This document shows positions 7,552-63,048 of a DNA stretch of 64,000 nucleotides, piece by piece (the first letter of the stretch is position 1; every line of letters begins with the position of its first letter). A model generated the notes under the pieces. It did not search any database. It had not been told where the DNA came from and saw nothing but the letters and a program-made list of their open reading frames with translations. The position numbers and the translations under genes were made by a program. Origin of the DNA: Squalus acanthias (Eukaryota); assembly GCA_030390025.1 (NCBI GenBank), contig CM059431.1, positions 145,826,001 to 145,890,000 of the forward strand, in the 5' to 3' direction.

Positions 7552-7586
7552 AATCACAGATTCTCGATGCCTCTGCATGTAACTGA

Positions 7587-12572: not shown

Positions 12573-12594
12573 TACAGTTCTAGTCAATCTACCT

Positions 12595-12625
12595 TAAACA
12601 CTAACCCTAACACTAACCCTAACCC
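12595..12625. repeat. Short (TAACCC)n telomere-like tract
   Basis: TAAACAC-TAACCC-TAACAC-TAACCC-TAACCC replaces part of a 98-bp unit. Confidence 0.6.
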
Positions 12626-14195: not shown

Positions 14196-14415
14196 ATGTC
14201 CAGTCGCTGCGTATGTTCAAGGCAGAGATCGATAGATTTTCGGATACGAAGGGAACCAAGGGATGTGGGGATAGGGCAGGAAAGTGGAGTTGAGGTAGAA
14301 GACCCAGCCCTCTGGGGTAGAGAATTCCAAAGATTCACATCTGTCAGAGTGTTGAAATTTCTGCTCATCTCAGCCCTATGGGACTACACCTTATTTCTAG
14401 ATTCTTCATCCCCCT
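14196..14415. mobile_element. Two short CR1 3' fragments in opposite orientations
   Basis: TTCAAGGCAGAGATCGATAGATT...GGAGTTGAGG on the plus strand, then CTCTGGGGTAGAGAATTCCAAAGATTCAC (minus-strand CR1). Confidence 0.6.
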
Positions 14416-14419
14416 CGAT

Positions 14420-21200: not shown

Positions 21201-24200
21201 GTGAGGGACATAGTGTGTGGAATTACTGGATCACGGAGAGTGAGAGTGTGAGGGAAACAGAGTGTATAATTACAGGATTACGGAGAGTGAGAGTGCGAGG
21301 GAAACAGAGTGTGAAATTACTGGAACAAGGAGAGTGAGAGTGTGAGGGACACAGAGTGTTCAATTACTGGATCACGGAGAGTGAGAATGTGAGGGACACA
21401 GTGTGTGGAATTACTGGATCACGGAGAGTGAGAGTGCTTGGGACACAGAGTACAATTGCTGGAACACAGAGAGTGAGAGTGTGAGGGACACAGAGTGTAC
21501 AAATACTGGAACATGGAGAGTGAGAGTGCGAGGGACACTGAGTGTACAATTGCTGGAACACGGAGAGTGAGAGTGTAAGGGACACAGAGTGTATAATTAC
21601 AGGATTACGGAGAGTGAGAGTGCGAGGGAAACAGAGTGTGAAATTACTGGAACAAGGAGAGTGAGAGTGTGAGGGACACAGAGTGTTCAATTACTGGATC
21701 ACGGAGAGTGAGAATGTGAGGGACACAGTGTGTGGAATTACTGGATCACGGAGAGTGAGAGTGCTTGGGACACAGAGTACAATTGCTGGAACACAGAGAG
21801 TGAGAGTGTGAGGGACACAGAGTGTACAAATACTGGAACATGGAGAGTGAGAGTGCGAGGGACACAGAGTGTACAATTGCTGGAACACGGAGAGTGAGAG
21901 TGTAAGGGACACAGAGTGTACAATTACTGGAACACGGAGAGTGCGAGCGTGAGGGACACAGAGTGTACAATTAATGGAACACGGAGAGTGAGAGTGTGAG
22001 GGACACAGTGTGTGGAATTACTGGAACAAGGAGGATGAGAGTGTGAGGGACACAGAGTGTACAAATACTGGAACATGGAGAGTGAGAGTGCGAGGGACAC
22101 AGAGTGTACAATTGCTGGAACACGGAGAGTGAGAGTGTGAGGGACACAGAATGTACAATTACTGGAACACGGAGAGTGAGAGTGTGAGGGACACAGTGTG
22201 TGGAATTACTGGAACAAGGAGAGTGAGAGTGTGAGGGACACAGAGTGTACAATTACTGGAACACGGAGAGTGAGAGTGTCAGGGACAGAGAGTGTGCAAT
22301 TACTGCAACACGGAGAGTGAGAGTGTGAGGGCCACAGAGTGTACAATTACTGGAACACGGAGAGTGTCAGGGACACAGAGTGTGCAATTACTGGAACACG
22401 GAGAGTGTCAGGGACACAATGTGTGCAATTACTGGAACACGGAGAGTGAGAGTGTCAGGGACACAGTAGTAACAATTACTGGAACACGGAGAGTGAGAGT
22501 GTCAGGGACACAGTGGTAACAATTACTGGAACACGGAGAGTGAGAGTGTCAGGGACACAGTGGTAACAATTACTGGAACAAGGAGAGTGAGAGTGTGAGG
22601 GACACAGATTGTACAATTGCTGGAACACAGAGAGTGAGAGTGTGAGGGACACAGAGTGTACAAATACTGGAACATGGAGAGTGAGAGTGCGAGGGACACA
22701 GAGTGTACAATTGCTGGAACACGGAGAGTGAGAGTGTCAGGGACACAGAGTGTACAATTAATGGAACACGGAGAGTGAGAGTGTCAGGGACAGAGAGTGT
22801 GCAATTACTGCAACACGGAGAGTGAGAGTGTGAGGGCCACAGAGTGTACAATTACTGGAACACGGAGAGTGTCAGGGACACAGAGTGTGCAATTACTGGA
22901 ACACGGAGAGTGTCAGGGACACAATGTGTGCAATTACTGGAACACGGAGAGTGAGAGTGTCAGGGACACAGTAGTAACAATTACTGGAACACGGAGAGTG
23001 AGAGTGTCAGGGACACAGTTGTAACAATTACTGGAACACGGAGAGTGAGAGTGTCAGGGAGACAGTGGTAACAATTACTGGAACAAGGAGAGTGAGAGTG
23101 TGAGGGACACAGATTGTACAATTGCTGGAACACAGAGAGTGAGAGTGTGAGGGACACAGAGTGTACAAATACTGGAACATGGAGAGTGAGAGTGCGAGGG
23201 ACACAGAGTGTACAATTGCTGGAACACGGAGAGTGAGAGTGTGAGGGACACAGAGTGTACAATTACTGGAACACGGAGAGTGAGAGTGTGAGGGACACAG
23301 AGTGTACAATTAATGGAACACGGAGAGTGAGAGTGTGAGGGACACAGTGTGTGGAATTACTGGAACAAGGAGGTTGAGAGTGTGAGGAACACAGAGTGTA
23401 CTATTACTGGAACACGGAGAGTGAGAGTGTCAGGGACAGAGAGTGTGCAATTACTGGAACACGGAGAGTGAGTGTGTGAGGGCCACAGAGTGTACAATTA
23501 CTGGAACACGGAGAGTGAGAGTGTGAGGGACACAGTGTGTAACAATTACTGGAACATGGAGAGTGAGAGTGTCAGGGACACAGTGTGTCCAATTACTGGA
23601 ACACGGAGAGTGTCAGGGACACCGTGTGTACAATTACTGGAACACGGAGAGTGAGAGTGCGAGGGACACAGTTAGTGAAAAATTACTGGAACACGGAGAG
23701 TTATAGTGTGAGGTACACATAGAGTACAATTACTGGAACATGGAGAGTGAGTGTGTGAGGGACACAGAATGTACAATTACTGGATCACGGAGAGTGAGAG
23801 TGTGAGGGACACAGAGTGTACAATTACTGGAACACGGAGAGTGAGAGTGTGAGGGACACCGTATGTACAATTACTGGAACACGGAGAGTGAGAGTATGAG
23901 GGACACAGAATGTACAATTACTGGAACACGGAGAGTGAGAGTGTGAGGGACACTGAAATTACTGGAACACGGAGAGTGAGAGTGTGAGGGACACAGTGTG
24001 TGGAATTACTGGATCACGGAGAGTGAGAGTGTGAGGAACACAGAGTGTTAATTATTGGATCAGGGAGAGGAGAGTGTGAGGGACACAGAGTGTTCAATTA
24101 CTGGATCACAGAGAGTGAGAGTGTGAGGGACATAGTGTGTGGAATTACTGGATCACGGAGAGTGAGAGTGTGAGGGAAACAGAGTGTATAATTACAGGAT

Positions 24201-27200
24201 TACGGAGAGTGAGAGTGCGAGGGAAACAGAGTGTGAAATTACTGGAACAAGGAGAGTGAGAGTGTGAGGGACACAGAGTGTTCAATTACTGGATCACGGA
24301 GAGTGAGAATGTGAGGGACACAGTGTGTGGAATTACTGGATCACGGAGAGTGAGAGTGCTTGGGACACAGAGTACAATTGCTGGAACACAGAGAGTGAGA
24401 GTGTGAGGGACACAGAGTGTACAAATACTGGAACATGGAGAGTGAGAGTGCGAGGGACACTGAGTGTACAATTGCTGGAACACGGAGAGTGAGAGTGTAA
24501 GGGACACAGAGTGTATAATTACAGGATTACGGAGAGTGAGAGTGCGAGGGAAACAGAGTGTGAAATTACTGGAACAAGGAGAGTGAGAGTGTGAGGGACA
24601 CAGAGTGTTCAATTACTGGATCACGGAGAGTGAGAATGTGAGGGACACAGTGTGTGGAATTACTGGATCACGGAGAGTGAGAGTGCTTGGGACACAGAGT
24701 ACAATTGCTGGAACACAGAGAGTGAGAGTGTGAGGGACACAGAGTGTACAAATACTGGAACATGGAGAGTGAGAGTGCGAGGGACACAGAGTGTACAATT
24801 GCTGGAACACGGAGAGTGAGAGTGTAAGGGACACAGAGTGTACAATTACTGGAACACGGAGAGTGCGAGCGTGAGGGACACAGAGTGTACAATTAATGGA
24901 ACACGGAGAGTGAGAGTGTGAGGGACACAGTGTGTGGAATTACTGGAACAAGGAGGATGAGAGTGTGAGGGACACAGAGTGTACAAATACTGGAACATGG
25001 AGAGTGAGAGTGCGAGGGACACAGAGTGTACAATTGCTGGAACACGGAGAGTGAGAGTGTGAGGGACACAGAGTGTACAATTACTGGAACACGGAGAGTG
25101 AGAGTGTGAGGGACACAGTGTGTGGAATTACTGGAACAAGGAGAGTGAGAGTGTGAGGGACACAGAGTGTACAATTACTGGAACACGGAGAGTGAGAGTG
25201 TCAGGGACAGAGAGTGTGCAATTACTGCAACACGGAGAGTGAGAGTGTGAGGGCCACAGAGTGTACAATTACTGGAACACGGAGAGTGTCAGGGACACAG
25301 AGTGTGCAATTACTGGAACACGGAGAGTGTCAGGGACACAATGTGTGCAATTACTGGAACACGGAGAGTGAGAGTGTCAGGGACACAGTAGTAACAATTA
25401 CTGGAACACGGAGAGTGAGAGTGTCAGGGACACAGTGGTAACAATTACTGGAACACGGAGAGTGAGAGTGTCAGGGACACAGTGGTAACAATTACTGGAA
25501 CAAGGAGAGTGAGAGTGTGAGGGACACAGATTGTACAATTGCTGGAACACAGAGAGTGAGAGTGTGAGGGACACAGAGTGTACAAATACTGGAACATGGA
25601 GAGTGAGAGTGCGAGGGACACAGAGTGTACAATTGCTGGAACACGGAGAGTGAGAGTGTCAGGGACACAGAGTGTACAATTAATGGAACACGGAGAGTGA
25701 GAGTGTGAGGGACACAGTGTGTGGAATTACTGGAACAAGGAGAGTGAGAGTGTGAGGAACACAGAGTGTACAATTACGGGAACACAAAGAGTGAGAGTGT
25801 CAGGGACAGAGAGTGTGCAATTACTGGAACACGGAGAGTGAGTGTGTGAGGGCCACAGAGTGTACAATTACTGGAACACGGAGAGTGAGAGTGTGAGGGA
25901 CACAGTGTGTAACAATTACTGGAACATGGAGAGTGAGAGTGTCAGGGACACAGTGTGTCCAATTACTGGAACACGGAGAGTGTCAGGGACACCGTGTGTA
26001 CAATTACTGGAACACGGAGAGTGAGAGTGCGAGGGACACAGTTAGTGTAAAATTACTGGGACACGGAGAGTTATAGTGTGAGGTACACATAGAGTACAAT
26101 TACTGGAACATGGAGAGTGAGTGTGTGAGGGACACAGAATGTACAATTACTGGATCACGGAGAGTGAGAGTGTGAGGGACACAGAGTGTACAATTAATGG
26201 AACACGGAGAGTGAGAGTGTGAGGGACACAGTGTGTGGAATTACTGGAACAAGGAGGTTGAGAGTGTGAGGAACACAGAGTGTACTATTACTGGAACACG
26301 GAGAGTGAGAGTGTCAGGGACAGAGAGTGTGCAATTACTGGAACACGGAGAGTGAGTGTGTGAGGGCCACAGAGTGTACAATTACTGGAACACGGAGAGT
26401 GAGAGTGTGAGGGACACAGTGTGTAACAATTACTGGAACATGGAGAGTGAGAGTGTCAGGGACACAGTGTGTCCAATTACTGGAACACGGAGAGTGTCAG
26501 GGACACCGTGTGTACAATTACTGGAACACGGAGAGTGAGAGTGCGAGGGACACAGTTAGTGAAAAATTACTGGAACACGGAGAGTTATAGTGTGAGGTAC
26601 ACATAGAGTACAATTACTGGAACATGGAGAGTGAGTGTGTGAGGGACACAGAATGTACAATTACTGGATCACGGAGAGTGAGAGTGTGAGGGACACAGAG
26701 TGTACAATTACTGGAACACGGAGAGTGAGAGTGTGAGGGACACCGTATGTACAATTACTGGAACACGGAGAGTGAGAGTATGAGGGACACAGAATGTACA
26801 ATTACTGGAACACGGAGAGTGAGAGTGTGAGGGACACTGAAATTACTGGAACACGGAGAGTGAGAGTGTGAGGGACACAGTGTGTGGAATTACTGGATCA
26901 CGGAGAGTGAGAGTGTGAGGAACACAGAGTGTTAATTATTGGATCAGGGAGAGGAGAGTGTGAGGGACACAGAGTGTTCAATTACTGGATCACAGAGAGT
27001 GAGAGTGTGAGGGACATAGTGTGTGGAATTACTGGATCACGGAGAGTGAGAGTGTGAGGGAAACAGAGTGTATAATTACAGGATTACGGAGAGTGAGAGT
27101 GCGAGGGAAACAGAGTGTGAAATTACTGGAACAAGGAGAGTGAGAGTGTGAGGGACACAGAGTGTTCAATTACTGGATCACGGAGAGTGAGAATGTGAGG

Positions 27201-30200
27201 GACACAGTGTGTGGAATTACTGGATCACGGAGAGTGAGAGTGCTTGGGACACAGAGTACAATTGCTGGAACACAGAGAGTGAGAGTGTGAGGGACACAGA
27301 GTGTACAAATACTGGAACATGGAGAGTGAGAGTGCGAGGGACACTGAGTGTACAATTGCTGGAACACGGAGAGTGAGAGTGTAAGGGACACAGAGTGTAT
27401 AATTACAGGATTACGGAGAGTGAGAGTGCGAGGGAAACAGAGTGTGAAATTACTGGAACAAGGAGAGTGAGAGTGTGAGGGACACAGAGTGTTCAATTAC
27501 TGGATCACGGAGAGTGAGAATGTGAGGGACACAGTGTGTGGAATTACTGGATCACGGAGAGTGAGAGTGCTTGGGACACAGAGTACAATTGCTGGAACAC
27601 AGAGAGTGAGAGTGTGAGGGACACAGAGTGTACAAATACTGGAACATGGAGAGTGAGAGTGCGAGGGACACAGAGTGTACAATTGCTGGAACACGGAGAG
27701 TGAGAGTGTAAGGGACACAGAGTGTACAATTACTGGAACACGGAGAGTGCGAGCGTGAGGGACACAGAGTGTACAATTAATGGAACACGGAGAGTGAGAG
27801 TGTGAGGGACACAGTGTGTGGAATTACTGGAACAAGGAGGATGAGAGTGTGAGGGACACAGAGTGTACAAATACTGGAACATGGAGAGTGAGAGTGCGAG
27901 GGACACAGAGTGTACAATTGCTGGAACACGGAGAGTGAGAGTGTGAGGGACACAGAGTGTACAATTACTGGAACACGGAGAGTGAGAGTGTGAGGGACAC
28001 AGTGTGTGGAATTACTGGAACAAGGAGAGTGAGAGTGTGAGGGACACAGAGTGTACAATTACTGGAACACGGAGAGTGAGAGTGTCAGGGACAGAGAGTG
28101 TGCAATTACTGCAACACGGAGAGTGAGAGTGTGAGGGCCACAGAGTGTACAATTACTGGAACACTGAGAGTGTCAGGGACACAGAGTGTGCAATTACTGG
28201 AACACGGAGAGTGTCAGGGACACAATGTGTGCAATTACTGGAACACGGAGAGTGAGAGTGTCAGGGACACAGTAGTAACAATTACTGGAACACGGAGAGT
28301 GAGAGTGTCAGGGACACAGTGGTAACAATTACTGGAACACGGAGAGTGAGAGTGTCAGGGACACAGTGGTAACAATTACTGGAACAAGGAGAGTGAGAGT
28401 GTGAGGGACACAGATTGTACAATTGCTGGAACACAGAGAGTGAGACTGTGAGGGACACAGAGTGTACAAATACTGGAACATGGAGAGTGAGAGTGCGAGG
28501 GACACAGAGTGTACAATTGCTGGAACACGGAGAGTGAGAGTGTCAGGGACACAGAGTGTACAATTAATGGAACACGGAGAGTGAGAGTGTGAGGGACACA
28601 GTGTGTGGAATTACTGGAACAAGGAGAGTGAGAGTGTGAGGAACACAGAGTGTACAATTACTGGAACACAAAGAGTGAGAGTGTCAGGGACAGAGAGTGT
28701 GCAATTACTGGAACACGGAGAGTGAGTGTGTGAGGGCCACAGAGTGTACAATTACTGGAACACGGAGAGTGAGAGTGTGAGGGACACAGTGTGTAACAAT
28801 TACTGGAACATGGAGAGTGAGAGTGTCAGGGACACAGTGTGTCCAATTACTGGAACACGGAGAGTGTCAGGGACACCGTGTGTACAATTACTGGAACACG
28901 GAGAGTGAGAGTGCGAGGGACACAGTTAGTGTAAAATTACTGGGACACGGAGAGTTATAGTGTGAGGTACACATAGAGTACAATTACTGGAACATGGAGA
29001 GTGAGTGTGTGAGGGACACAGAATGTACAATTACTGGATCACGGAGAGTGAGAGTGTGAGGGACACAGAGTGTACAATTACTGGAACATGGAGAGTGAGA
29101 GTGTGAGGGACACCGTATGTACAATTACTGGAACACGGAGAGTGAGAGTATGAGGAACACAGAATGTACAATTACTGGAACACGGAGAGTGAGAGTGTGA
29201 GGGACACTGAAATTACTGGAACACGGAGAGTGAGAGTGTGAGGGACACAGTGTGTGGAATTACTGGATCACGGAGAGTGAGAGTGTGAGGAACACAGAGT
29301 GTTAATTATTGGATCAGGGAGAGGAGAGTGTGAGGGACACAGAGTGTTCAATTACTGGATCACGGAGAGTGAGAGTGTGAGGGACATAGTGTGTGGAATT
29401 ACTGGATCACGGAGAGTGAGAGTGTGAGGGAAACAGAGTGTATAATTACAGGATTACGGAGAGTGAGAGTGCGAGGGAAACAGAGTGTGAAATTACTGGA
29501 ACAAGGAGAGTGAGAGTGTGAGGGACACAGAGTGTTCAATTACTGGAACACGGAGAGTGAGAGTGTGAGGGACACTGTGAAATTACTGGAACACGGAGAG
29601 TGAGAGTGTGAGGGACACAGTGTGTGGAATTACTGGAACACGGAGAGTGAGAGTGTGAGGAACACAGAGTGTTAATTATTGGATCACGGAGAGTGAGAGT
29701 GTGAGGGACACAGAGTGTTCAATTACTGGATCACTGAGAGTGAGAGTGTGAGGGAAACAGTGTGTGGAATTACTGGAACACGGAGAGTGAGAGTATGAGG
29801 GAAACAGAGTGTATAATTACTGGATCACGGAGAGTGAGAGTGCGAGGGACACAGAGTGTACAATTACTGGAACACGGAGAGTTAGAGTGTGAGGGACACA
29901 GAGTACAATTGCTGGAACACAGAGATTGAAAGTGTGAGGGACACAGAGTGTACAATTACTGGAACATGGAGAGTGAGAGTGCGAGGGACACAGAGTGTAA
30001 AATTGCTGGAACACGGAGAGTGAGAGTGTGAGGGACATAGAGTGTACAATTACTGGAACACGGAGAGTGAGAGTCTCAGGGACACAGAGTGTACAATTAC
30101 TGAAACACGGAGAGTGAGAGTGTGAGGGACACAGTGTGTGGAATTACTGGAACACGGAGAGTGAGAGTGTGAGGGACACAGAATGTACAATTACTGGAAC

Positions 30201-32368
30201 ACGGAGAGTGAGAGTGTCAGGGACAGAGAGTGTGCAATTACTGCAACACGGAGAGTGAGTGTGTGAGGGCCACAGAGAGTACAATTACTGGAACACGGAG
30301 AGTGAGAGTGTGAGGGACACAGAGTGTACAATTACTGGAACACGGAGAGTGAGAGTGTGAGGGACACAGTGTGTAACAATTACTGGAACACGGCGAGTGA
30401 GAGTGTGAGGGACACAGTATGTCCAATTACTGGAACACGGAGAGTGAGAGTGTCAGGGACACAGTGTGTGCAATTACTGGAACACGGAGAGTGAGAGTGT
30501 CAGGGACACAGTGTGTGCAATTACTGGAACACGGAGAGTGTCAGGGACACAATGTGTACAATTACTGGAACATGGAGAGTGAGAGTGCGAGGGACACAGT
30601 TAGTGTAAAATTACTGGAACACGGAGAGTTATAGTGTGAGGTACACATAGAGTACAATTACTGGAACACGGAGAGTGAGAGTGTGAGGGACACAGAGTGT
30701 TCAATTACTGGAACATGGAGAGTGAGAGTGTGAAGGACAGAGAGTGTGCAATTACTGGAACATGGAGAGTGAGAGTGTGAGGGACACAGAGTGTGAAATT
30801 ACTGGAACAATGAGAGTGAGAGTGTGAGGGACACAGAGTGTTCAAATACTGGAACACGGAGAGTGAGAGTGTGAGGGACACTGTGAAATTACTGGAACAC
30901 GGAGATTGAGAGTGTGAGGGACACAGTGTGTGGAATTACTGGAACACGGAGAGTGAGAGTGTGAGGGACACAGAGTGTTCAATTACTGGATCACGGAGAG
31001 TGAGAATGTGAGGGACACAGTGTGTGGAATTACTGGATCACGGAGAGTGAGAGTGCTTGGGACACAGAGTACAATTGCTGGAACACAGAGAGTGAGAGTG
31101 TGAGGGACACAGAGTGTACAAATACTGGAACATGGAGAGTGAGAGTGCGAGGGACACAGAGTGTACAATTGCTGGAACACGGAGAGTGAGAGTGTAAGGG
31201 ACACAGAGTGTACAATTACTGGAACACGGAGAGTGAGAGTGTGAGGGACACAGAGTGTACAATGAATGGAACACGGAGAGTGAGAGTGTGAGGGACACAG
31301 TGTGTGGAATTACTGGAACAAGGAGGATGAGAGTGTGAGGGACACAGAGTGTACAAATACTGGAACATGGAGAGTGAGAGTGCGAGGGACACAGAGTGTA
31401 CAATTGCTGGAACACGGAGAGTGAGAGTGTGAGGGACACAGAGTGTACAATTACTGGAACACGGAGAGTGAGAGTGTGAGGGACACAGAGTGTACAATTA
31501 CTGGAACACGGAGAGTGAGAGTGTGAGGGACACAGTGTGTGGAATTACTGGAACAAGGAGAGTGAGAGTGTGAGGGACACAGAATGTACAATTACTGGAA
31601 CACGGAGAGTGTCAGGGACACAATGTGTGCAATTACTGGAACACGGAGAGTGAGAGGGTCAGGGACACAGTAGTAACAATTACTGGAACACGGAGAGTGA
31701 GAGTCTCAGGGACACAGAATGTACAATTACTGAAACACGGAGAGTGAGAGTGTGAGGGACACAGTGTGTGGAATTACTGGAACACGGAGAGTGAGAGTGT
31801 GAGGGACACAGAATGTACAATTACTGGAACACGGAGAGTGAGAGTGTCAGGGACAGAGAGTGTGCAATTACTGCAACACGGAGAGTGAGTGTGTAAGGGC
31901 CACAGAGAGTACAATTACTGGAACACGGAGAGTGAGAGTGTGAGGGACACAGTGTGTAAATTACTGGAACACGGAGAGTGAGAGTATGAGGGACACAGTG
32001 TGTACAATTACTGGAACACGAAGAGTGAGTGTGAGGGGCACATTGTGTTCAAGTACTGGAATACGGAGAATGAGAATGTGAGGGCCATTATGTGTACAAT
32101 TACTGGAACACAGAGAGTGAGTGTGAGGGACACAGTGTGTAAAATTAGGGGAACACGGAAAGTGAGAGTGTGGGGCACACAGTGAGTTAATTCATGGAAC
32201 ACGGAGTTGAGAGTGCGAGGGACACAGTGAGGTAATCAGTGGAACACGGAGAGTGAGAGTGTGAGGTACACAGTGTGTTCAATTACTGGAACACAGAGAG
32301 TCATAGTGTGAGGGACACAGTTTGTAAAATTACTGGAAGAGGGAAAGTGAGAATGTGAGAGACACAGT

Positions 32369-33077
32369 GGGCTGGATTTTGATACTGGGGCGGGTTGGGG
32401 TCGTGTTATCCACCCGACTGTTATTGGATGTGGGAGATTGATGCAATTTTCACCTATTGGGCAATTGAGTTCCAGCATGTGGGAACCCATGAACCAATTA
32501 GTGGTTTCAGTCTGAAAGTCGCCTCTGATGATGTCATCATTGCTGCTGCATTGAAGGTCAGAGACTGCCTGGCCTTTGCTGTGAGAGGACCTGGATGCAA
32601 AATGAGCAGCAGAGAGAGAGAGAGAGAGAGAGAATTTTACATACAGGTCCTCTCCCAGCAAAGGCCAGGCAGTCTCTGAAGACTTTCAATGCAGCAGCAT
32701 CAGAGGCGACTTTCAGACCTAGTACTACTACCTTCACATCTCCGTTGTAATAGTAGCTGATAGTGAGCTATCCAAATGTGTTCCCACCAGGTTTCACAAT
32801 CGTGGTTCAGAACAGGCGTGCTTCATGCAGATCAAGGGTTAAAATCACAAAGGCCTTTCAAAATGGCATTATAGAGTCAATTTAGTGCTTGTTAAGGGCC
32901 TTAACAGCCTATCCCGCCTCTTAAAGGCGGGATGGAGTCGGGGCCAGCAGACATGATTTAATGAAAATTCCGTGGAGGCGGGATGGAGGCGGACTTGTGC
33001 CTGCAGGCCAGTTTTCGCAATATTAACCCCCCACAAGCCTCCAAACCGGCCTCCACGGGTCAATGAAAATCCAGCCC
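32369..33077. mobile_element. Non-autonomous Harbinger-like MITE 1 (709 bp)
   Basis: Perfect 12-bp TIR GGGCTGGATTTT/AAAATCCAGCCC, 3-bp TSD AGT, no coding capacity. Confidence 0.9.
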
Positions 33078-33268
33078 AGTGTGTTCAATTACTAGAACAG
33101 GGAGAGTGAGAGTGTGAGGGACACAGTGTGTAGAATTACTGGAACACGAAGACTGAGAGTGTGAGGGAAACAGAGTGTATAATTACTGGAACATGGAGAC
33201 TGAGAGTGTGAGGGACACAGAGTGTATAATTTCTGGAACACGGAGAGTGAGAGTGTGAGGGAAACAGT

Positions 33269-34055
33269 GGGCTGGATTTTGAATGACCCATGGAGTCGGG
33301 TTTGGAGGCGTGTGGGGGGTTAAATTTGCGGGGTCGGGGTTTCCGACCCCATCCCGACTCCACGCAATTTTGACAAAATCAGTCGCGGGGTTCCCGACTC
33401 TGTCCCGCCTCCAAGAGGCGGGAGAGGCCATTAAAGCCCTTAACAAGCTCGAAATTGGCTCTGTAATGCCATTTTGAAACGTTTTAGCTAGTTTAACCCT
33501 TTTCTGACGTGAAGTACGCCTGATGTGAAACACTCCAGTGAAACCTGGCGGGAGCACAAGTGGATAGCTGACTATCGGCTGCAGGTCCACTATTACAACG
33601 GAGATATGATGAAGGTAGTAGTAGTATTAGGTCTGAAAGTCGCCTCTGATGCTGCTGCATTGAATGTCTTCAGAGACTGCCTAGGAGGACTTGGTTGCAA
33701 AAAAAAGTATCTGTCTCTCTGTCTCTCTGTCTCTCTCTCTCTCTCTGTCTCTCTCTCTCTCTGTCTCTCTCTCTCTCACACATTTTTGCATCCAGGTCCA
33801 CTCACATCAAAAGCAAGTCAGGCAGGTCCTCTCTCATCAACACTCTCTGAGACTAGGCAGTCAGCAATGATGACATCATCAGAGGCGACTTTCAGACTGA
33901 AAACACTAATTAGTTCATGGGTTCCCACATGCTCTAACTCAATAGCCCAATTAAGTGAAAATTGCATCAGGCATCCACATTAATCAGGAGTCGGGGGGGA
34001 AACACGAAATACGGATTACATGACCCCAACCCGACCCCAAGACAAAATCCAGCCC
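33269..34055. mobile_element. Non-autonomous Harbinger-like MITE 2 (787 bp), inverted relative to MITE 1
   Basis: Same 12-bp TIR, TSD AGT. Internally homologous to the reverse complement of MITE 1 but clearly diverged. Confidence 0.9.
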
Positions 34056-35463
34056 AGTGTGTTCAATTACTGGAAAACGGAGACTGGGAGTGGGTGTGTG
34101 AGAGACACAGTGTGTTAAATTACTGGAACACGGAGAGTGAGAGTGTGAGGGACACAGAGTGTGCAATTACTGGAACAAGAAGAGTGAGAGTGTGAGGGAT
34201 ACAGTGTGTTCAATTACTGGAACACGGAGAGTGAGAGTGTGAGGGACACAGTGTGTTCAATTACTGGAACACGGAGTGTGAGAGTGTGAGGAACACAGTG
34301 TGTGTAATTACTGAAACAAGTAAAGTGATAGTGTGAGGGACACAGAGTGTACAATGACTGGAACACGGAGATTGAGAGTATGTGGGAGACAGGCTGTACA
34401 ATTACTGGAACATGGAGAGTGAGAGTGCGAGGGACACAGTGTGTTAAATTACTGGAACACGGAGAGTGAGAGTGTGAGGGACACAGTGTGCAAAAATTAC
34501 AGGGACACGGAGAGTGTCAGGGACAGAGAGTGTGCAATTACTGGAACATGGAGAGTGAGAGTGTGTGGGACACAGTGTGTACAATTACTTGAACACGGAG
34601 AGTGAGAGTGTGAGGGACACAGTGTGTAGAATTACTGGAATACGGAGAGTGAGAGTGTGAGGGACAGTGTGTGGAATTACTGGAACACGGAGAATGAGAG
34701 TGCGAGGGACACAGAGTGTCCAATTACAGTAACACGGAGAGTGAGAGTGTGAGGGACACAGAGTGTAGAAATACTGGAACATGGAGAGTGAGCGTGTGAG
34801 GGACACAGAGAGTACAATTGCTGGAACACAGAGAGTGAGAGTGTGAGGGACACAGAGCGTAAAATTACTGGAACATGGAGAGTGAGAGTGCGAGGGACAC
34901 AGAGTGTGCAATTACTGGAACACGGAGAGTAAGAGTGTGAGGGACACAGAGGGGTAAAAATTCACTTGGTTGCGCCTCCCGTTAGCGCCTTAAGAGGGCG
35001 CTAATGGGGCGTTTAGCCGCTAACGCCCGGGCGCAGCGATGTTTGCGCCGCTCGAGAACTTAACTTGAGATTGTGCGGCGGCGCTAAAACTTACCGCTGC
35101 GACCACCTGCGCGCGCAGATTGTGACGTAATTCCATGGTGCAATGCCCTTGGGGCGCCCCGGTGTGGAAATTGAGTGGCGCCCCCTGCCTTACCGCCTGG
35201 CGCTTCCAACGACCCGAAGACTGGAACTCTATCAATCGGTGTGGGGCTGGGGGGGTGGGGGGCGCTATTTAAAGGGGGCCTCTTCCTGTCTTTTTCTGTG
35301 GTCGACATTTATGCACCACTCGTTCTGAGAGCGAGAGAGAGATTCGGAGAGAGAGAGAGACTTCTACATTGACTCAACGCTTTGTGAGGTAGTTTTGCCT
35401 ATTCATCCTAACTTTGTTGCTACTTTAGTTGCTGTACCTCATTACTTTTCTGGCAAAGAGAAT

Positions 35464-36624
35464 ATGGGGGCTGCAATGATTGGGGGCGTCGTCCTGCTCC
35501 AGCTGAATCGGAGGATACCAAGACGCAGACAGAGAGTGGCAATGATGGCCAGACGGAGGAGGGCCATCAGGCGCATGTACAGGAGAGCTTACCCTCCCAG
35601 GGTATATCGTGAACAGCTCTCCTAAATCCATATGTCCGAGGAGCTGTGTTTGCAAAGGCTGCGATTCAGCAAGGAGGTGGTCACTGAGCTCTGCCACCTG
35701 CTGCAGCCAGATCTGCAGCCTCAGCTGAGGTCCAGGACGTCTCTGTCGGTGGCAGTGAAGGTCACAGTAGCTTTGAACTTCTACGCCACTGGCTCATTCC
35801 AAGCTCCTGTTGGGGACCTCGCCAATATCTCCCAGTTTGCGGTGCATCGCTGCATCCGGCAGGTCACCAATGCCCTCTTCAGAAGGAGATGAGACTTCAT
35901 CTCTTTCCCTATGACCCCAGACAAGCAGCGTGACCGTGCTCTGGGCTTTGCGAGGGTAGCGGGCTTCCCCATGGTGCAGGGCGCCATTGACTGCACGCAT
36001 GTGGCTTTGCGTGCTCCGCGAGAGAATGCAGAGGAATTCAGGAACAGAAAGGGGTTCCATTCCTTGAATGTGCAGTTGGTCTGTGACCACAGACAGGTGA
36101 TACTCGCTGTCAATGCCCACTATCCGGGCAGCTGCCACGATGCTTTCATCCTGCACCAGACTACTGTGGCAGAAGTTTTCGAGGCACCGCATCAGCCAGT
36201 TGGTTGGCTTCTGGGGGACAAGGGGTACGCATTGAGCACCTGGCTGATGACACCGCTCCGTATGCCAAACACCCCTGCTGAGCTGCGGTACAATGAAAGC
36301 CATCAAGCAACCAGGAACATTATTCAGCGCACAATCGGCGTGCTGAAACAACGGTTCCGCTGTCTGGACCATTCCGGAGGAGCCCTGCAGTACTCGCCTG
36401 AGCAAGTTTCGAACTTCGTAGTCGTGTGCTGCATGTTGCACAACATGGCAATCCTCAGGACCCAGCCAATGCCACCAGGCCTTGTAGCACCACCAGAGGA
36501 GGAGGAGGAAGAGGAGGAAGAGGACGAGGACGATGATCATCAGCAGCACCAAGGCAGGAGGGCGGCCCACAATGGTCAAACTGCAAGGGCCGTCCGTCAA
36601 CGACTAATAGCAAGCCGCTTCTAG
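35464..36624 (+). pseudogene. Harbinger (HARBI1-like) DDE transposase, about 386 codons, two in-frame stops
   Basis: One frame across three ORFs with stops at 35623-35625 and 35890-35892. Motifs ALNFYATGSFQ, GAIDCTHV, NRKGFHSLNVQLVCD, PGSCHDAFIL, LLGDKGY, YNESH..TRNIIQRTIGVLKQRFRCL. Confidence 0.95.
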
Positions 36625-36918
36625 GGCCCCTGCCATTGCTACAAACATTAATCAACCCAGCACGCAACCCCTAAGCCGGCCAAGGCACCAATAATTCCAA
36701 CCACCAGCCATGTATATTTTGAATACAGAAACTTATTTATTTTACAAACTCTGTGTGTGTCAATTCCTCATGACAAACTCATAGAAATAAACACAAAAAA
36801 ACAGTCAATAACATAACTGGTTCTCACAACCTGGAGATAATGTCCAAAACACTAAACAAAAGTTGGACCATGAACCTCGGCCTTTAATAAAAAAATGACC
36901 AGCATTTTGTCACACCTC

Positions 36919-38853
36919 CTACTTTTTGCCCTTCGAGGGTGATCTCCTTCCCTTGCGCACTTCCCCCCTTCTAACCCTACTGCTCCTCCGTAATGGGACC
37001 TCAGTGGCTGCAGCAAGGCTGGTGGAAGGCTGCTGCTCGTCAGACCCTGACACTGCAGATGCCCCTGAAGGACGGCCTCGACCACTTCTGGGCCTGGAGG
37101 GCCCTGCTGCAGACTGCACCAACTCTGCATGGGCGGCAGCAGTCTGTCCTACAGGCGGTGGCAAGTGCAGTGGAGAAGTGACAGTGTTGGCAGCAGGAAT
37201 GCTGTCATCGTGAGAGAGGCCAGCAATTCCCTGCTCGCCCGACACACTGGCACTCCCACGGGGCAGCACTTCAGCATCCGGAGCAATCTGCCGGAGAACA
37301 GATTGCTGGCCTGCTGCGGTGCGGTGACAGCCCCGGGGACATGTGCACGAACCATCGAGATTGGCAGCAGTCTGTGCTCGCGTGGCCTCCATCTGAGTCT
37401 GTATGAGAGCAATCAGAGGTGGGATCACGGCAGCCAGTGACTGAATTGCAGCACTAAGCATTAGTGTGGCATCCGCCTGTGCTACAGCGAAGTGCTCCAC
37501 ACTCCTTGCCAGTGACTCAATGCATTCGGGCACCCTTCCCACTGCACCCATGAGCTCAGTGTGCATGCCCACCGCCTGGGTGTTCATTTCTGCAATCAGC
37601 CGCTCCTCCTCTGCGTCCATTGCAGTAGGAGTGTCTGGCATACTCTCCCTCTGGGGAGAAGGCCCCCGTTATTCCCTACCCCCCCCCCCCATGGCGTTGC
37701 TGCAGCCCGCTGGGTCCTGGAGCTTCACCATCATCAGCCCCTTCCCCCCTGCTCCCCTCCGGGGAAGGCGTGTTCCCAGTGTGGGCATGGGCTTCCTCGG
37801 GAGAGGGTGGCACTGATGCTCTGGCTTCCTCTTCCTCCTCAGCTGCAGCATCACTCCCAGTGGCAGCTTCAGGGCCCGTCTCCTCAGCTGGTGAATCACC
37901 ATCTGAAAGCAGGGAGGTACAAGAGTGGCTTTAGCGTGAGGACAGGGTGGCAGTAAGGGAGGAATAAGTGCAGCGAGTTAGCAAGTTGGATTGAAAGTGT
38001 CAAAGGCTGGTGTTGTGAGGGACAAGTGGAAGGACAGAGGACAAAAAGGTGATGACCTTACCATTGCTGTTCACAACGGGGTCGGCGTCTCCAGTGGCGA
38101 CGGGACCGATCACCCGGCTTGCCACAATCCTGTGGACGCGCTCCTCCAGAACGCTGAGGGGTTGCAGCTGAAGCCGCCCTCCACCTGTCCGTTGCTGCTG
38201 TCTCCTATTATGAGCCAGCTTGGCCTGCAAGAAAAAGGACAGCATCTGAGTAAATATACAGCCATGGTCTTGCCTGATGTGCCTCCCATAGGTGAATAGC
38301 CCTTACAATATACAGCCATGGTCTTGCCTGATGTGCCTCCCATAGGTGAATAGCCCTTACAATGTACAGCCATGGTCTTGCCTGATGTGCCTCCCATAGG
38401 TGAATAGCCCTTACAATATACAGCCATGGTCTTGCCTGATGTACCTCCCATAGGTGAATAGCCCTTACTGTATGCAAAGTGTGGAATGTGCGTGTATGTT
38501 TGATGAAAGGGCCATAGGTGTTGGATGAGTGTTGTGCATTGGGGTTTTAAGACCCTCTGGCCATAGAGTGAGGTTGAGATGGAGGGATGGAGAGGTATTG
38601 AGAAAAAGCCACTCACCCTGACGACCCGAGTGAGGTTGTTGAACTTTTTGCGGCATTGAGTATGGATCCTGGGCACCATGCTCCTGGAGGAGACGCTCTG
38701 AGCCACCTCCCTCCACACTCTTCTGAACTCGCGTGGCAAAGGCCTCCTGCCACTCTCAGGGAACAGCATACATCGTCTGCGCTCCACTGCATCAACCAGA
38801 GCATCCAAGGCCCGCTCGGTGAAGCGATGAGCGCGTTCTCTCACCCTCTCCAT
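36919..38853 (-). pseudogene. Harbinger Myb/SANT-like (trihelix) DNA-binding protein, 3 exons, disrupted
   Basis: Exon 1 38853-38617 (RAHRFTERALDALV...VWREVA...QCRKKFNNL, donor GTGAGT). Exon 2 38224-38062 (AKLAHNRRQQQRTGGG, donor GTAAGG). Exon 3 from 37902, broken at the G12 run and TAA near 37669-37690, continuing into ORF 37641-36919. Confidence 0.85.
38254..38468. repeat. 54-bp tandem repeat x4 inside Myb intron 1
   Basis: TATACAGCCATGGTCTTGCCTGATGTGCCTCCCATAGGTGAATAGCCCTTACAA, near-perfect copies. Confidence 0.95.
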
Positions 38854-41800
38854 GCTTGGCAGCAAAATGGATTACAGGTCTCTCCAGGCGGAGATTCAAG
38901 GCTGCAATGAGCAGGGTGTGGCTGGGGAGCAAGTGCCCCCCCCCCCGCTTTAAGAAGTGTCCGGCGCCAGTGTGTCTGTGTTCCCTCGCTAACTGGCAGC
39001 AGCTGCGCTGCGCTCGCGCGCTGAGTTAGCGCCTCACTCCTTGGCCTTTGCACCTTAAGAGAGGTGTGCAGCGCCTGCTTTAGCGCTCCACTCACCTCCC
39101 GGGGCGGTAAAAGTGAAGTTTCCTGTCAGTACCGATAATTAGCGAAAGGCGCTAATATTTGCGTCCGGACGATATTTGCGCCCCAAATGGGGCGCGACCT
39201 AATTTCTACCCCAGAGTGTACAATTACTGGAACACGGCGAGTGAGACTGTGAGGGACACAGAGTGTACAATTACTGGAATACGGAGAGTGAGAGTGTGAG
39301 GGACACAGAGTGTCTAATTACTGGAACATAGAGAGTGAGAGTGCGAGGGACACAGAGTGTACAATTGCTGGAACACGGAGAGTAAGAGTGTGAGGGACAC
39401 AGAGTGTTCAATTACTGGAACACGGAGAGTGAGAGTGTGAGGGACACAGAGTGTGTAATTACTGAAACAAGTAAAGTGATAGTGTGAGGGACACAGAGTG
39501 TACAATGACTGGAACACGGAGATTGAGAGTGTGTGGGAGACAGGATGTACAATTACTGGAACATGGAGAGTGAGAGTGCGAGGGACATGGTGTTAAATTA
39601 CTGGAACACGGAGAGTGAGAGTGTGAGGGACACAGTTCGTGTAAAATTACTGGAACACGGAGAGTGAGAGTGTGAGGGTCACAGTGTGTACAATTACTGG
39701 AAAACGGAAAGTGAGAGTGTGAGGGAGACAGAGTGTTTAATTACTGGAAAACGGAAAGTGAGAGTATGAGGGAAACAGAGTGTATAATTACTGGATCACG
39801 GAGAGTGAGAGTGCGAGGGACACAGAGTGTACAATTACTGGAACACGGAGAGTGAGAGTCTGAGGGACACAGAGTGTACAATTACTGGAACACGGAGAGT
39901 GAGAGTGTGAGGGACACAGTGTGTGGAATTACTGGAACACGGAGAGTGAGAGTGTGAGGGACACAGAATGTACAATTACTGAAACACGGAGAGTGAGAGT
40001 GTCAGGGACAGAGAGTGTGCGATTACTGGAACACGGAGAGTGAGAGTGTGAGGGCCACAGAGAGTACAATTACTGGAACACGGAGAGTGAGAGTGTGAGG
40101 GACACAGAGTGTACAATTACTGGAACACGGAGAGTGAGAGTGTGAGGGACACAGTGTGTAACAATTAGTGGAACACGGCGAGTGAGAGGGTGAGGGACAC
40201 AGTATGTCCAATTAATGGAACACAGAGAGTGAGAGGGTCAGGTACACCGTGTGTACAATTACTGGAACACGGAGAGTGAGAGTGCGAGGGACACAGTTAG
40301 TGTAAAATTACAGGAACACGGAGAGTTATAGTGTGAGGTACACATAGAGTACAATTACTGGAACACGGAGAGTGAGAGTGTGAAGGACACAGAATGTACA
40401 ATTACTGGAATACGGAGAGTGAGAGTGAGAGGGACACAGAATGTACAATTACTGGAACACGGAGAGTGAGAGTGTGAGGGACACAGAGTGTACAATTACT
40501 GGAACACGGAGAGTGAGAGTGTGAGGGACACAGAGTGTACAATTACTGGAACACGGAGAGTGAGAGTGTGAGGGACACCGTATGTACAATTACTGGAACA
40601 CGGAGAGTGAGAGAGTGAGGGACACAGAATGTACAATTAATGGAACATGGAGAGTGAGAGTGCGAGGGACACAGTGCGTTAAATTACTGGAACACGGAGA
40701 GTGAGAGTGTGAGGGACACAGTTTGTGCAATTACTGGAACACGGAGAGTGTCAGGGACAGAGAGTGTGCAATTACTGGAACATGGAGAACGAGAGTGTGA
40801 GGGACACAGAGTGTGAAATTACTGGAACAAGGAGAGTGAGAGTGTGAGGGACACAGAGTGTTCAATTACTGGAACACGGAGAGTGAGAGTGTGAGGGACA
40901 CTGTGAAATTACTGGAACACGGAGAGTGAGAGTGTGAGGGACACAGTGTGTGGAATTACTGGATCACGGAGAGTGAGAGTGTGAGGAACACAGAGTGTTA
41001 ATTATTGGATCAGGGAGAGGAAAGTGTGAGGGACACAGAGTGTTCAATTACTGGATCACGGAGAGTGAGAGTGTGAGGGACACAGTGTGTGGAATTACTG
41101 GATCACGGAGAGTGAGAGTGTGAGGGAAACAGAGTGTATAATTACAGGATTACGGAGAGTGAGAGTGCGAGGGAAACAGAGTGTGAAATTACTGGAACAA
41201 GGAGAGTGAGAGTGTGAGGGACACAGAGTGTTCAATTACTGGAACACGGAGAGTGAGAGTGTGAGGGACACGGTGAAATTACTGGAACACGGAGAGTGAG
41301 AGTGTGAGGGACACAGTGTGTGGAATTACTGGAACACGGAGAGTGAGAGTGTGAGGAACACAGAGTGTTAATTATTGGATCACGGAGAGTGAGAGTGTGA
41401 GGGACACAGAGTGTTCAATTACTGGATCACTGAGAGTGAGAGTGTGAGGGAAACAGCGTGTGGAATTACTGGAACACGGAGAGTGAGAGTATGAGGGAAA
41501 CAGAGTGTATAATTACTGGATCACGGAGAGTGAGAGTGCGAGGGACACAGAGTGTACAATTACTGGAACACGGAGAGTTAGAGTGTGAGGGACACAGAGT
41601 ACAATTGCTGGAACACAGAGATTGAAAGTGTGAGGGACACAGAGTGTACAATTACTGGAACATGGAGAGTGAGAGTGCGAGGGACACAGAGTGTAAAATT
41701 GCTGGAACACGGAGAGTGAGAGTGTGAGGGACATAGAGTGTACAATTACTGGAACACGGAGAGTGAGAGTCTCAGGGACACAGAGTGTACAATTACTGCA

Positions 41801-47800: not shown

Positions 47801-50800
47801 AACACGGAGAGTGAGAGTATGAGGGAAACAGAGTGTATAATTACTGGATCACGGAGAGTGAGAGTGCGAGGGACACAGAGTGTACAATTACTGGAACACG
47901 GAGAGTTAGAGTGTGAGGGACACAGAGTACAATTGCTGGAACACAGAGATTGAAAGTGTGAGGTACACAGAGTGTACAATTACTGGAACATGGAGAGTGA
48001 GAGTGCGAGGGACACAGAGTGTAAAATTGCTGGAACACGGAGAGTGAGAGTGTGAGGGACATAGAGTGTACAATTACTGGAACACGGAGAGTGAGAGTCT
48101 CAGGGACACAGAGTGTACAATTACTGGAACACGGAGAGTGAGAGTGTGAGGGACACAGTGTGTGGAATTACTGGAACACGGAGAGTGAGAGTGTGAGGGA
48201 CACAGAATGTACAATTACTGGAACACGGAGAGTGAGAGTGTCAGGGACAGAGAGTGTGCAATCACTGCAACACGGAGAGTGAGTGTGTGAGGGCCACAGA
48301 GAGTACAATTACTGGAACACGGAGAGGGAGAGTGTGAGGGACACAGAGTGTACAATTACTGGAGCACGGAGAGTGAGAGTGTGAGGGACACAGTGTGTAA
48401 CAATTACTGGAACACGGCGAGTGAGAGTGTGAGGGACACAGTATGTCCAATTACTGGAACACGGAGAGTGAGAGTGTCAGGGACACAGTGTGTGCAATTA
48501 CTGGAACACGGAGAGTGAGAGTGTCAGGGACACAGTGTGTGCAATTACTGGAACACGGAGAGTGTCAGGGACACAATGTGTACAATTACTGGAACACGGA
48601 GAGTGAGAGTGTCAGGGACACCGTGTGTACAATTACTGGAACATGGAGAGTGAGAGTGCGAGGGACACAGTTAGTGTAAAATTACTGGAACACGGAGAGT
48701 TATAGTGTGAGGTACACATAGAGTTCAATTACTGGAACACGGAGAGTGAGAGTGTGAGGGACACAGAGTGTTCAATTACTGGAACGTGGAGAGTGAGAGT
48801 GTGAAGGACAGAGAGTGTGCAATTACTGGAACAAGGAGAGTGAGAGTGTGAGGGACACAGAGTGTGAAATTACTGGAACAAGGAGAGTGAGAGTGTGAGG
48901 GACACAGAGTGTTCAAATACTGGAACACGGAGAGTGAGAGTGTGAGGGACACTGTGAAATTACTGGAACACGGAGATTGAGAGTGTGAGGGACACAGTGT
49001 GTGGAATTACTGGAACACGGAGAGTGAGAGTGTGAGGGACACAGAGTGTTCAATTACTGGATCACGGAGAGTGAGAATGTGAGGGACACAGTGTGTGGAA
49101 TTACTGGATCACGGAGAGTGAGAGTGCTTGGGACACAGAGTACAATTGCTGGAACACAGAGAGTGAGAGTGTGAGGGACACAGAGTGTACAAATACTGGA
49201 ACATGGAGAGTGAGAGTGCGAGGGACACAGAGTGTACAATTGCTGGAACACGGAGAGTGAGAGTGTAAGGGACACAGAGTGTACAATTACTGGAACACGG
49301 AGAGTGAGAGCGTGAGGGACACAGAGTGTACAATTAATGGAACACGGAGAGTGAGAGTGTGAGGGACACTGTGTGTGAAATTACTGGAACAAGGAGGATG
49401 AGAGTGTGAGGGACACAGAGTGTACAAATACTGGAACATGGAGAGTGAGAGTGCGAGGGACACAGAGTGTACAATTGCTGGAACACGGAGAGTGAGAGTG
49501 TGAGGGACACAGAGTGTACAATTACTGGAACACGGAGAGTGAGAGTGTGAGGGACACAGTGTGTGGAATTACTGGAACAAGGAGAGTGAGAGTGTGAGGG
49601 ACACAGAGTGTACAATTACTGGAACACGGAGAGTAAGAGTGTCAGGGACAGAGAGTGTGCAATTACTGCAACACGGAGAGTGAGAGTGTGAGGGCCACAG
49701 AGTGTACAATTACTGGAACACGGAGAGTGTCAGGGACACAGAGTGTGCAATTACTGGAACACGGAGAGTGTCAGGGACACAATGTGTGCAATTACTGGAA
49801 CACGGAGAGTGAGAGTGTCAGGGACACAGTAGTAACAATTACTGGAACACGGAGAGTGAGAGTGTCAGGGACACAGTTGTAACAATTACTGGAACACGGA
49901 GAGTGAGAGTGTCAGGGAGACAGTGGTAACAATTACTGGAACAAGGAGAGTGAGAGTGTGAGGGACACAGATTGTACAATTGCTGGAACACAGAGAGTGA
50001 GAGTGTGAGGGACACAGAGTGTACAAATACTGGAACATGGAGAGTGAGAGTGCGAGGGACACAGAGTGTACAATTGCTGGAACACGGAGAGTGAGAGTGT
50101 GAGGGACACAGAGTGTACAATTACTGGAACACGGAGAGTGAGAGTGTGAGGGACACAGAGTGTACAATTAATGGAACACGGAGAGTGAGAGTGTGAGGGA
50201 CACAGTGTGTGGAATTACTGGAACAAGGAGGTTGAGAGTGTGAGGAACACAGAGTGTACTATTACTGGAACACGGAGAGTGAGAGTGTCAGGGACAGAGA
50301 GTGTGCAATTACTGGAACACGGAGAGTGAGTGTGTGAGGGCCACAGAGTGTACAATTACTGGAACACGGAGAGTGAGAGTGTGAGGGACACAGTGTGTAA
50401 CAATTACTGGAACATGGAGAGTGAGAGTGTCAGGGACACAGTGTGTCCAATTACTGGAACACGGAGAGTGTCAGGGACACCGTGTGTACAATTACTGGAA
50501 CACGGAGAGTGAGAGTGCGAGGGACACAGTTAGTGAAAAATTACTGGAACACGGAGAGTTATAGTGTGAGGTACACATAGAGTACAATTACTGGAACATG
50601 GAGAGTGAGTGTGTGAGGGACACAGAATGTACAATTACTGGATCACGGAGAGTGAGAGTGTGAGGGACACAGAGTGTACAATTACTGGAACACGGAGAGT
50701 GAGAGTGTGAGGGACACCGTATGTACAATTACTGGAACACGGAGAGTGAGAGTATGAGGGACACAGAATGTACAATTACTGGAACACGGAGAGTGAGAGT

Positions 50801-62857: not shown

Positions 62858-63048
62858 AGTGTGTTCAATTACTAGAACAGGGAGAGTGAGAGTGTGAGGG
62901 ACACAGTGTGTAGAATTACTGGAACACGAAGACTGAGAGTGTGAGGGAAACAGAGTGTATAATTACTGGAACATGGAGACTGAGAGTGTGAGGGACACAG
63001 AGTGTATAATTACTGGAACACGGAGAGTGAGAGTGTGAGGGAAACAGT

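Follow-up and report, generated by a model that had tools for sequence, protein, structure and literature searches.

A palindromic target preference as the probable cause of same-base Harbinger insertions in a dogfish satellite

Three independent PIF/Harbinger insertions occupy the same base of a 47-bp satellite monomer in the dogfish Squalus acanthias, in all probability (roughly 0.88) because the insertion machinery prefers a 15-bp palindrome genome-wide, to which each monomer presents one principal near-match. Four direct observations carry this reading: a flank preference common to three element families, the position of its best match at monomer bases 41-43, the large number of elements, and how little they use the satellite. 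The shared phase most likely arises where a motif-bearing repeat meets the extended target preference already known for PIF/Harbinger elements, with nothing special about the satellite as a landing pad.

Results

Three insertions at bases 41-43 of the monomer

The window (the whole stretch of 64,000 nucleotides analysed) contains the following features.

18252-64000, plus strand: 47-bp satellite array, running beyond the window to ~115,970; the whole array is 98 kb long, with ~1,850 monomers
32369-33077, no strand assigned: MITE 1, 709 bp, non-coding, of an abundant Harbinger-type family, TIR GGGCTGGATTTT
32366-32368 (left) and 33078-33080 (right), plus strand: MITE 1 TSD, AGT, monomer bases 41-43
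33269-34055, no strand assigned: MITE 2, 787 bp, same TIR as MITE 1, 73% identical to it, in opposite orientation
33266-33268 (left) and 34056-34058 (right), plus strand: MITE 2 TSD, AGT, monomer bases 41-43
34951-39212, plus strand: long element, two-gene PIF/Harbinger, 4,262 bp, TIR GGGGTARAAATT
34948-34950 (left) and 39213-39215 (right), plus strand: long element TSD, AGA, monomer bases 41-43
35464-36624, plus strand: DDE_Tnp_4 (PF13359) transposase gene, 386 codons, with stops at 35623 and 35890
36919-38853, minus strand: Myb/SANT partner gene, first exon from 38853, last open frame 37668-36919

All three elements, with their termini and TSDs, were confirmed where the sequence-only reading had placed them, and each has short TIRs and a 3-bp TSD. 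The rebuilt empty sites are GAGACAC[AGT]GTGTTC for MITE 1, GGGAAAC[AGT]GTGTTC for MITE 2 and GGGACAC[AGA]GTGTAC for the long element, which puts 3/3 insertions at bases 41-43 of the 47-bp consensus, a fixed position within the unit. The proposal that the TSD forms the centre of an ACAC-NNN-GTGT quasi-palindrome holds for the position of the TSD and fails for the left half-site of MITE 2, which reads AAAC. As had been claimed, two TIR families and both MITE orientations are involved, the TIR of the long element differing from that of the MITEs.

The array, with 353 distinct monomers among its ~1,850, is composed of recent higher-order duplications of 1-3.6 kb. A census by exact 40-mer search, which diverged arrays can escape, found two paralogous arrays of 117 and 294 monomers (411 in total), giving ~2,260 monomers with the main array.

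Family assignment and coding capacity

As in PIF/Harbinger (PHIS) elements, the long element encodes a DDE transposase of the DDE_Tnp_4/HARBI1 type, matching the PF13359 profile with E=2.9e-38 on the window fragment and E=2.7e-39 on an uninterrupted 386-aa copy (locus L063), and a second gene in which Myb_DNA-bind_5 (PF13873) matches 38853-38602 on the minus strand (E=2.6e-8). The label 'autonomous' does not suit this copy, which is dead, with in-frame stops at transposase codons 54 and 143; the 386-aa frame is kept in 16 of 23 full-length copies of the family elsewhere. The family is young, with 1.1% substitutions between the satellite copy and its nearest relative. A perfect 3-bp TSD flanks 56 of the 78 non-local copies with both ends, and these TSDs do not follow the 5'-TWA-3' of the PIF/Harbinger group as narrowly defined by Han et al. 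2015, TAA or TTA accounting for 7 of the 56, ATA for 16, AAA for 15 and AAT for 6.

The TIR of MITE 1 and MITE 2 is shared with a coding Harbinger element, L273, which identifies both as Harbinger-derived MITEs. L273 is 4,256 bp long with GGGCTGGATTTT-type TIRs, has ends 69-73% like the MITEs, and matches DDE_Tnp_4 (E=3e-35) and Myb (E=8e-16). Another candidate coding partner, a 5.8-kb TIR pair (L257), turned out to be a MITE enlarged by a GA microsatellite. The MITEs were probably mobilised by L273 or a similar partner bearing the MITE TIR, not by the adjoining long element. Harbinger3_DR and mPing both need the two proteins to transpose, and the Myb protein binds the ends (PMC2836001); by analogy with these elements, the dogfish transposase and Myb pair may select the palindrome and duplicate its central 3 bp.

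Target preference and insertion phase

Flanks of 56-61 non-satellite copies revealed a 15-bp palindromic preference, AGACWC-WWW-GWGTCT, common to all three families, with information limited to positions -7 to +7. The matrix derives from a non-random sample, the best-scoring 30 matches per family plus 17 from the start of contig C1. Among the 56 TSD-perfect copies, A at -5 and T at +5 reach 89%, C at -2 and G at +2 reach 70%, and the TSD centre is A or T in 94%; the shape of the matrix is alike across 18 MITE-1, 22 MITE-2 and 16 long-family sites. The palindrome persists when re-used repeat sites are collapsed to 61 clusters, is symmetric even before symmetrising, and is loose, at ~8 bits. It matches the ACAC-nnn-GTGT that a genome-wide flank logo had been expected to yield, but the centre, given earlier as NNN, is in fact A/T-rich. 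A point against the motif reading is that all three satellite TSDs are centred on G, whereas G or C is central in only 3 of 45 ordinary sites; because the target centre is A/T-rich, the satellite's AGA/AGT core ranks as a second choice. In leave-one-out scoring against ordinary sites, the three satellite sites stand at the 92nd, 49th and 49th percentiles.

Within the monomer, the best match to the matrix is the hit base, at bases 41-43, in agreement with the proposal that a favoured Harbinger target is built into the monomer. Phase 41 carries 0.68 of the matrix weight in the consensus, 0.74 in real monomers and 0.61 with the de-duplicated matrix. Because 61-74% of the monomer's target weight thus lies on one base, the probability that three insertions share a phase is 0.24-0.41 under the measured preference. 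We substituted this null for the uniform phase behind an earlier estimate of (1/47)^2, which is correct as arithmetic and valid for uniform phase only. The case can serve as a worked control: same-base insertions in repeats call for a flank-matrix test rather than an assumption of uniform phase.

Independence of the insertions

Part of the array is present twice in the window.

48419-64000, plus strand: duplicate of 18639-34640 at an offset of +29,780 bp, in the assembly either a real duplication or two haplotypes assembled
62149-62857 and 63049-63835, inside this duplicate: second copies of MITE 1 and MITE 2

The second copy of the long element lies just past the window edge. This second insertion block is a duplication and so adds no insertion events; the original block would have been duplicated once, passively, 29.8 kb downstream. 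Array duplication does, then, carry insertions along, as the copies at 62149, at 63049 and past the window attest, and one could imagine the three elements themselves to be a single insertion copied with the array and then diverged or replaced. We consider that extremely improbable and reject array copying as the source of anything but the second block. The MITEs are inverted relative to each other while the satellite strand stays the same, and they differ by 27%, as against 4-5% from their relatives elsewhere (4.2% substitutions for MITE 1 and 4.4% for MITE 2); the long element, with different TIRs, matches neither of them internally, and the host monomers differ. With 73% identity, opposite orientation and closer relatives elsewhere for each, MITE 1 and MITE 2 are independent events, and the claim of three independent insertions is upheld by orientation, MITE divergence, differing TIRs and differing host monomers.

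Use of the satellite compared with CR1 LINEs

Exact termini number 72,543 and 35,565 genome-wide (controls 113 and 1,623), ~108,000 together. Eight of the first 30 GGGCTGGATTTT matches share an identical context, another repeat, so the raw end count inflates the number of elements, which we place at ~31,000-54,000, with ~31,000 having both ends exact. None of 84 non-local copies lies in this satellite, and the two paralogous arrays of 117 and 294 monomers contain no insertions. A genome-wide junction pattern (TSD ends at phases 18-48), which is not exhaustive and missed one known junction through a variant base, gave 63 matches, 5 of them in this array; in the remaining 58 the spacer, judged from the matched letters only, is unlike the monomer. 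Occupancy is 3 events in ~2,260 monomers, or 0.13-0.27% per monomer. As order-of-magnitude values from a rough matrix, the expected insertions are 0.7-1.3 at uniform density over 86 kb, 6-16 when the motif is applied to every monomer, and 1.2-3.1 when it is applied to the 353 distinct ones, compared with the 3 observed.

Two CR1 retrotransposon positions provide a comparison. At site 1, 793 filled and 1,261 empty copies give a raw occupancy of 39%, which is too high because the filled pattern fixes the left flank only; GTGTC forms the right flank in 8 of 17 resolved copies, for a like-for-like occupancy of ~23%; the matrix predicts 12-29%. The occupants, resolved in 17 of 20 retrieved copies, are a wide variety of elements inserted either way round. 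Site 2 has raw counts of 637 filled and 6,112 empty, far above the predicted 0.05-0.14%, which means that site use depends on more than base preferences acting independently. Raw occupancy over the two positions is 9-39%, against 0.13-0.27% per satellite monomer. Insertions following the same target preference break up a large fraction of CR1 LINE copies, at two set positions within the reverse transcriptase gene. Our limited search, from which absence from print does not follow, found no literature on Harbinger targeting satellites or CR1.

Alternative explanations for the array

Target-specific elements of multicopy repeats insert at a fixed position in the repeated unit. The dogfish insertions do so in 3/3 cases, for which the general motif accounts, and the families are neither confined to nor enriched in the satellite, with 0/84 non-local copies there in place of most copies or a clear excess. 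The idea that several Harbinger families home in on the satellite as a dedicated landing pad or safe haven draws on three independent hits by two TIR families at one base, on a target weight per base 8-13 times that of ordinary DNA (13.0 versus 1.0-1.7) and on an insertion block doubled passively by array duplication. We find it largely refuted and regard it as very unlikely: satellite junctions matched by the non-exhaustive pattern are confined to this one array, the 411 paralogous monomers are empty, only 3 of at least 31,000 elements lie in the satellite, fewer than the 6-16 that the motif predicts over all monomers, and the long copy that did land there is dead whereas most full-length copies elsewhere keep their frame. 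The satellite is most likely an ordinary target, used far less than the two CR1 positions.

The close spacing of the insertions is a separate matter from their phase.

31679-39800, plus strand: least-homogenised array segment, containing all three insertions within 24 monomers

There, 76% of the monomers in the 50-monomer window occur no more than twice, against an array median of 12%, and the two windows at the insertion blocks show the least homogenisation in the array (0.76 and 0.72 low-copy monomers; next 0.30). Clustering within 24 monomers has a probability of ~0.001 over 1,215 non-duplicated monomers and ~0.013 over the 353 distinct ones. It would probably reflect an old, unamplified part of the array, the remainder having been copied later from insertion-free units, although this cause is suggested by correlation and not by a dated history. 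Compatible with the target preference as the best explanation of phase, but doubtful in our view, is a more active role for the elements, in which the motif sets the phase and the first MITE pinned the array, halting homogenisation for ~25 monomers or opening chromatin, so that an island outlasting turnover gathered further motif-directed insertions. The low homogenisation around both insertion blocks, and the spacing of two MITEs of similar age 4 monomers apart with a younger long element 19 monomers further on, speak for it, but an old core predating amplification of the rest yields an identical pattern, the low-copy stretch runs on for ~10 monomers on the upstream side of MITE 1 and, past the long element, for 12 monomers downstream, and there are only three events on a single haplotype. 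Were pinning to be true, the base would be set by the preferred sequence and the neighbourhood by halted turnover or open chromatin.

Comparison with known systems

Plant PIF/Harbinger elements have been described as having an extended target preference of 9 bp, vertebrate ones of 15 bp (PMC2836001). The closest likeness is to zebrafish Harbinger3_DR and Harbinger3N_DR, with two genes (DDE transposase and Myb-like protein), a 3-bp TSD and a 15-bp palindromic target (PMC3016246, PMC2836001). As given there, the Harbinger3_DR target, AAACACCWGGTCTTT, agrees with the dogfish motif in its outer frame (A at -5, C at -2, G at +2, T at +5), and the dogfish matrix rates it at 9.7 bits. Its core is CWG, whereas the dogfish core is A/T-rich and variable (most commonly ATA, AAA, TAA and AAT); the dogfish also differs in its loose preference (~8 bits) and a copy number in the tens of thousands. 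Maize PIF/mPIF and rice mPing/Ping/Pong, as described, similarly pair an autonomous element with abundant Tourist-like MITEs sharing its TIRs, and their target preference reaches past an A/T-rich 3-bp TSD (PMC2836001, PMC5172404), but over 9 bp rather than 15, and the dogfish TSD is WWW, not strictly TTA/TAA.

Within PHIS, the PIF/Harbinger group as characterised by Han et al. 2015 (PMC4482050) likewise has two ORFs, a length of ~4.1-4.3 kb, a 3-bp A/T-rich TSD and short TIRs beginning with G. The C and G that flank the dogfish TSD are reminiscent of the NuwaII group described in the same source. The dogfish TSD is not strictly TWA, CWG or TNA, and placement among PIF/Harbinger, NuwaI and NuwaII is tentative. 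Microsatellites have been termed 'landing pads' for transposable elements (PMC12477314). Many copies of its transposase are naturally uninterrupted and its 15-bp target has an A/T core, so the dogfish family may lend itself to assays without prior reconstruction.

One monomer base carries three Harbinger-type insertions

The window spans positions 145826001–145890000 of C7 in the 3.71-Gb Squalus acanthias assembly (G000). Its 47-bp satellite runs from window position 18252 to about 115,970 (98 kb; 1,848 monomers, 353 distinct) and is interrupted by three elements, each with a perfect TSD:

32369–33077, MITE 1, TSD AGT
33269–34055, MITE 2, TSD AGT
34951–39212, long element (4,262 bp), TSD AGA

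Excising the elements in silico restored an intact 47-mer host monomer at each site, with all three TSDs at consensus bases 41–43 (phase 41), in line with the shared base noted in the sequence-only reading. MITE 1 and MITE 2 lie in opposite orientations with 73% identity, and the nearest relatives elsewhere of MITE 1, MITE 2 and the long element differ by 4.2%, 4.4% and 1.1% substitutions, respectively; the three are independent insertion events.

The long element carries two genes, a plus-strand one for a DDE_Tnp_4 transposase and a minus-strand one for a Myb/SANT protein, a layout described as PIF/Harbinger anatomy (PMC4482050). With transposase stops at codons 54 and 143, the window copy, earlier called autonomous, is dead. 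The 386-aa transposase frame is retained in 16 of 23 full-length family copies elsewhere and is supported by Pfam at locus L063. Between the Myb gene exons lies a 54-bp tandem repeat (window 38253–38468; 4 copies, 98% matches), whose copy number seemingly varies across the family (element lengths 4,135–4,325). The MITEs share their TIR with L273, a separate 4,256-bp coding Harbinger of a kind that is their likely partner. One MITE (L257; G000:C1:6285290–6291137) has reached 5.8 kb because its internal GA run has grown into a GA microsatellite of roughly 5 kb.

Exact termini of the two TIR types number 72,543 and 35,565 genome-wide, compared with 113 and 1,623 for controls. Inward pairs made up 30/100 and 25/100 of the first ends listed for each type, which extrapolates to ~31,000 elements exact at both ends; an upper guide of 54,000 comes from halving the total end count.

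An extended target probably favours the shared phase

We built a target matrix from 84 loci outside the window array, of which 78 were two-ended and 56 had a perfect TSD; the remaining 28 were excluded. The flank logo anticipated by the sequence-only reading emerged as the palindrome AGACWC-WWW-GWGTCT, with signal within −7 to +7 only and the same shape in all three families (18, 22 and 16 sites). The motif persisted (about 8 bits), and was symmetric before symmetrising, when we included 17 paired elements sampled in genome order and collapsed repeat sites used more than once, giving 73 sites in 61 clusters. Such an extended target is a known PIF/Harbinger trait, given as 15 bp in vertebrates and 9 bp in plants (PMC2836001). 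The preferred target of Harbinger3_DR is AAACACCWGGTCTTT (PMC3016246); the shark families share its outer frame, but their core is A/T-rich rather than CWG.

A perfect 3-bp TSD was missing in 22 of the 78 two-ended copies. In some copies (L065, L078, L022 and L026) the 3-bp flanks do not form a direct TSD but are reverse complements or centre-swapped versions of each other, with pairs such as TAT/ATA, TTT/AAA and TGT/AGT.

Scored position by position, the monomers give phase 41 a share of 0.68, 0.74 or 0.61 of the weight according to which matrix and monomers are used, confirming that the monomer embeds a preferred Harbinger target. Because so much weight falls on this phase, the probability of three insertions sharing one phase is 0.24–0.41, compared with 0.00045 for uniform phase; the proposed (1/47)^2 holds for a uniform-phase null only. 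The same-base pattern is real and its cause ordinary. The satellite sites score unexceptionally (92nd, 49th and 49th percentiles); their G-centred TSDs are uncommon, as 3 of 45 other sites have a central G or C.

Re-used sites in a LINE

Two positions in a LINE whose frame matches RVT_1, and which we take to be CR1 from the sequence type of its ORF2, are also re-used by the same families. Site 1, the base just after the FADDTK motif of ORF2, is filled by Harbinger-type elements in 793 copies and empty in 1,261 (39% raw; examples, L258–L277 filled and L251–L256 empty). Among 20 fetched filled copies, 17 were resolved, with many different elements and families in both orientations. Like-for-like occupancy is about 23%, and a matrix built without these sites predicts 12–29%. 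Site 2, where the frame reads RGIEYKSKEV, is filled in 637 copies and empty in 6,112 (L009, L039, L042 and L068, for example). This usage far exceeds the predicted 0.05–0.14%; part of the surplus comes from right-flank variants, but the matrix is evidently not complete. Per-site use of the satellite is tens of times below that of either LINE site.

About 18 of 63 junction-pattern matches have TTACTGGAATCTATCATCAGAGAC as a common flank, which marks another re-used site, in a dispersed repeat (L120, L122–L126, L128 and L133, for example). A few bases past the right TSD, in a LINE-tail-like repeat, the copies at L063 and L055 are followed by another Harbinger terminus, so that one short repeat carries tandem insertions.

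No insertion excess in the satellite

The sequence-only reading had cast the array as a landing pad or safe haven. Exact 40-mer monomer matches, a census that diverged arrays lacking that 40-mer would escape, numbered 323 genome-wide: 269 in the C7 array and 13 and 41 in two arrays on C3485. These paralogous arrays (90938–96098, plus strand, L236; 191213–204185, minus strand, L246–L247) are inverted relative to each other and share the 3′ but not the 5′ flank of the C7 array. Their 117 and 294 monomers contained no interruption in the 200 kb fetched of the contig's 267 kb. None of the 84 non-local copies had satellite in its flanks, and genome-wide junction-pattern matches fell in satellite at the C7 array only (5 of 63). 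Across about 2,260 satellite monomers there are therefore 3 events, present as 6 copies, an occupancy of 0.13–0.27%. Expectation is 0.7–1.3 insertions at uniform density and, weighted by motif, 6–16 over all monomers or 1.2–3.1 over distinct monomers. No excess is seen, and the landing-pad proposal is not borne out.

Clustering and array history

The insertion-bearing monomers are numbers 302, 306 and 325 of 1,848, a clustering with P of about 0.001 under uniform placement across the non-duplicated array. The array consists mostly of recent 1–3.6-kb duplications plus a single 29.8-kb duplication, and monomers occurring at most twice make up 37 of 48 near the insertions versus 221 of 1,741 in the rest. 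The simplest reading is that the insertions mark an old core long exposed to insertion, the remaining array having been amplified later from insertion-free units, although insertions that themselves arrested local turnover would look the same.

The 29.8-kb duplication pairs 18639–34640 with 48419–64420 and continues beyond the window. Identity between the blocks is 99.9–100% as far as MITE 1 and about 99.4% over MITE 2 and the long element, with divergence stepping from 0–0.06% before the end of MITE 1 to about 0.6% after it; in the second block, 11 monomers are also tandemly duplicated in the stretch from MITE 2 to the long element. The duplicate may have arisen by genuine unequal crossover, or the assembly may have joined two haplotypes. 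Directly upstream of the satellite, a minisatellite series (870–17145; 36-bp, 42-bp, C-rich and 98-bp units) is present twice, about 13 kb apart.
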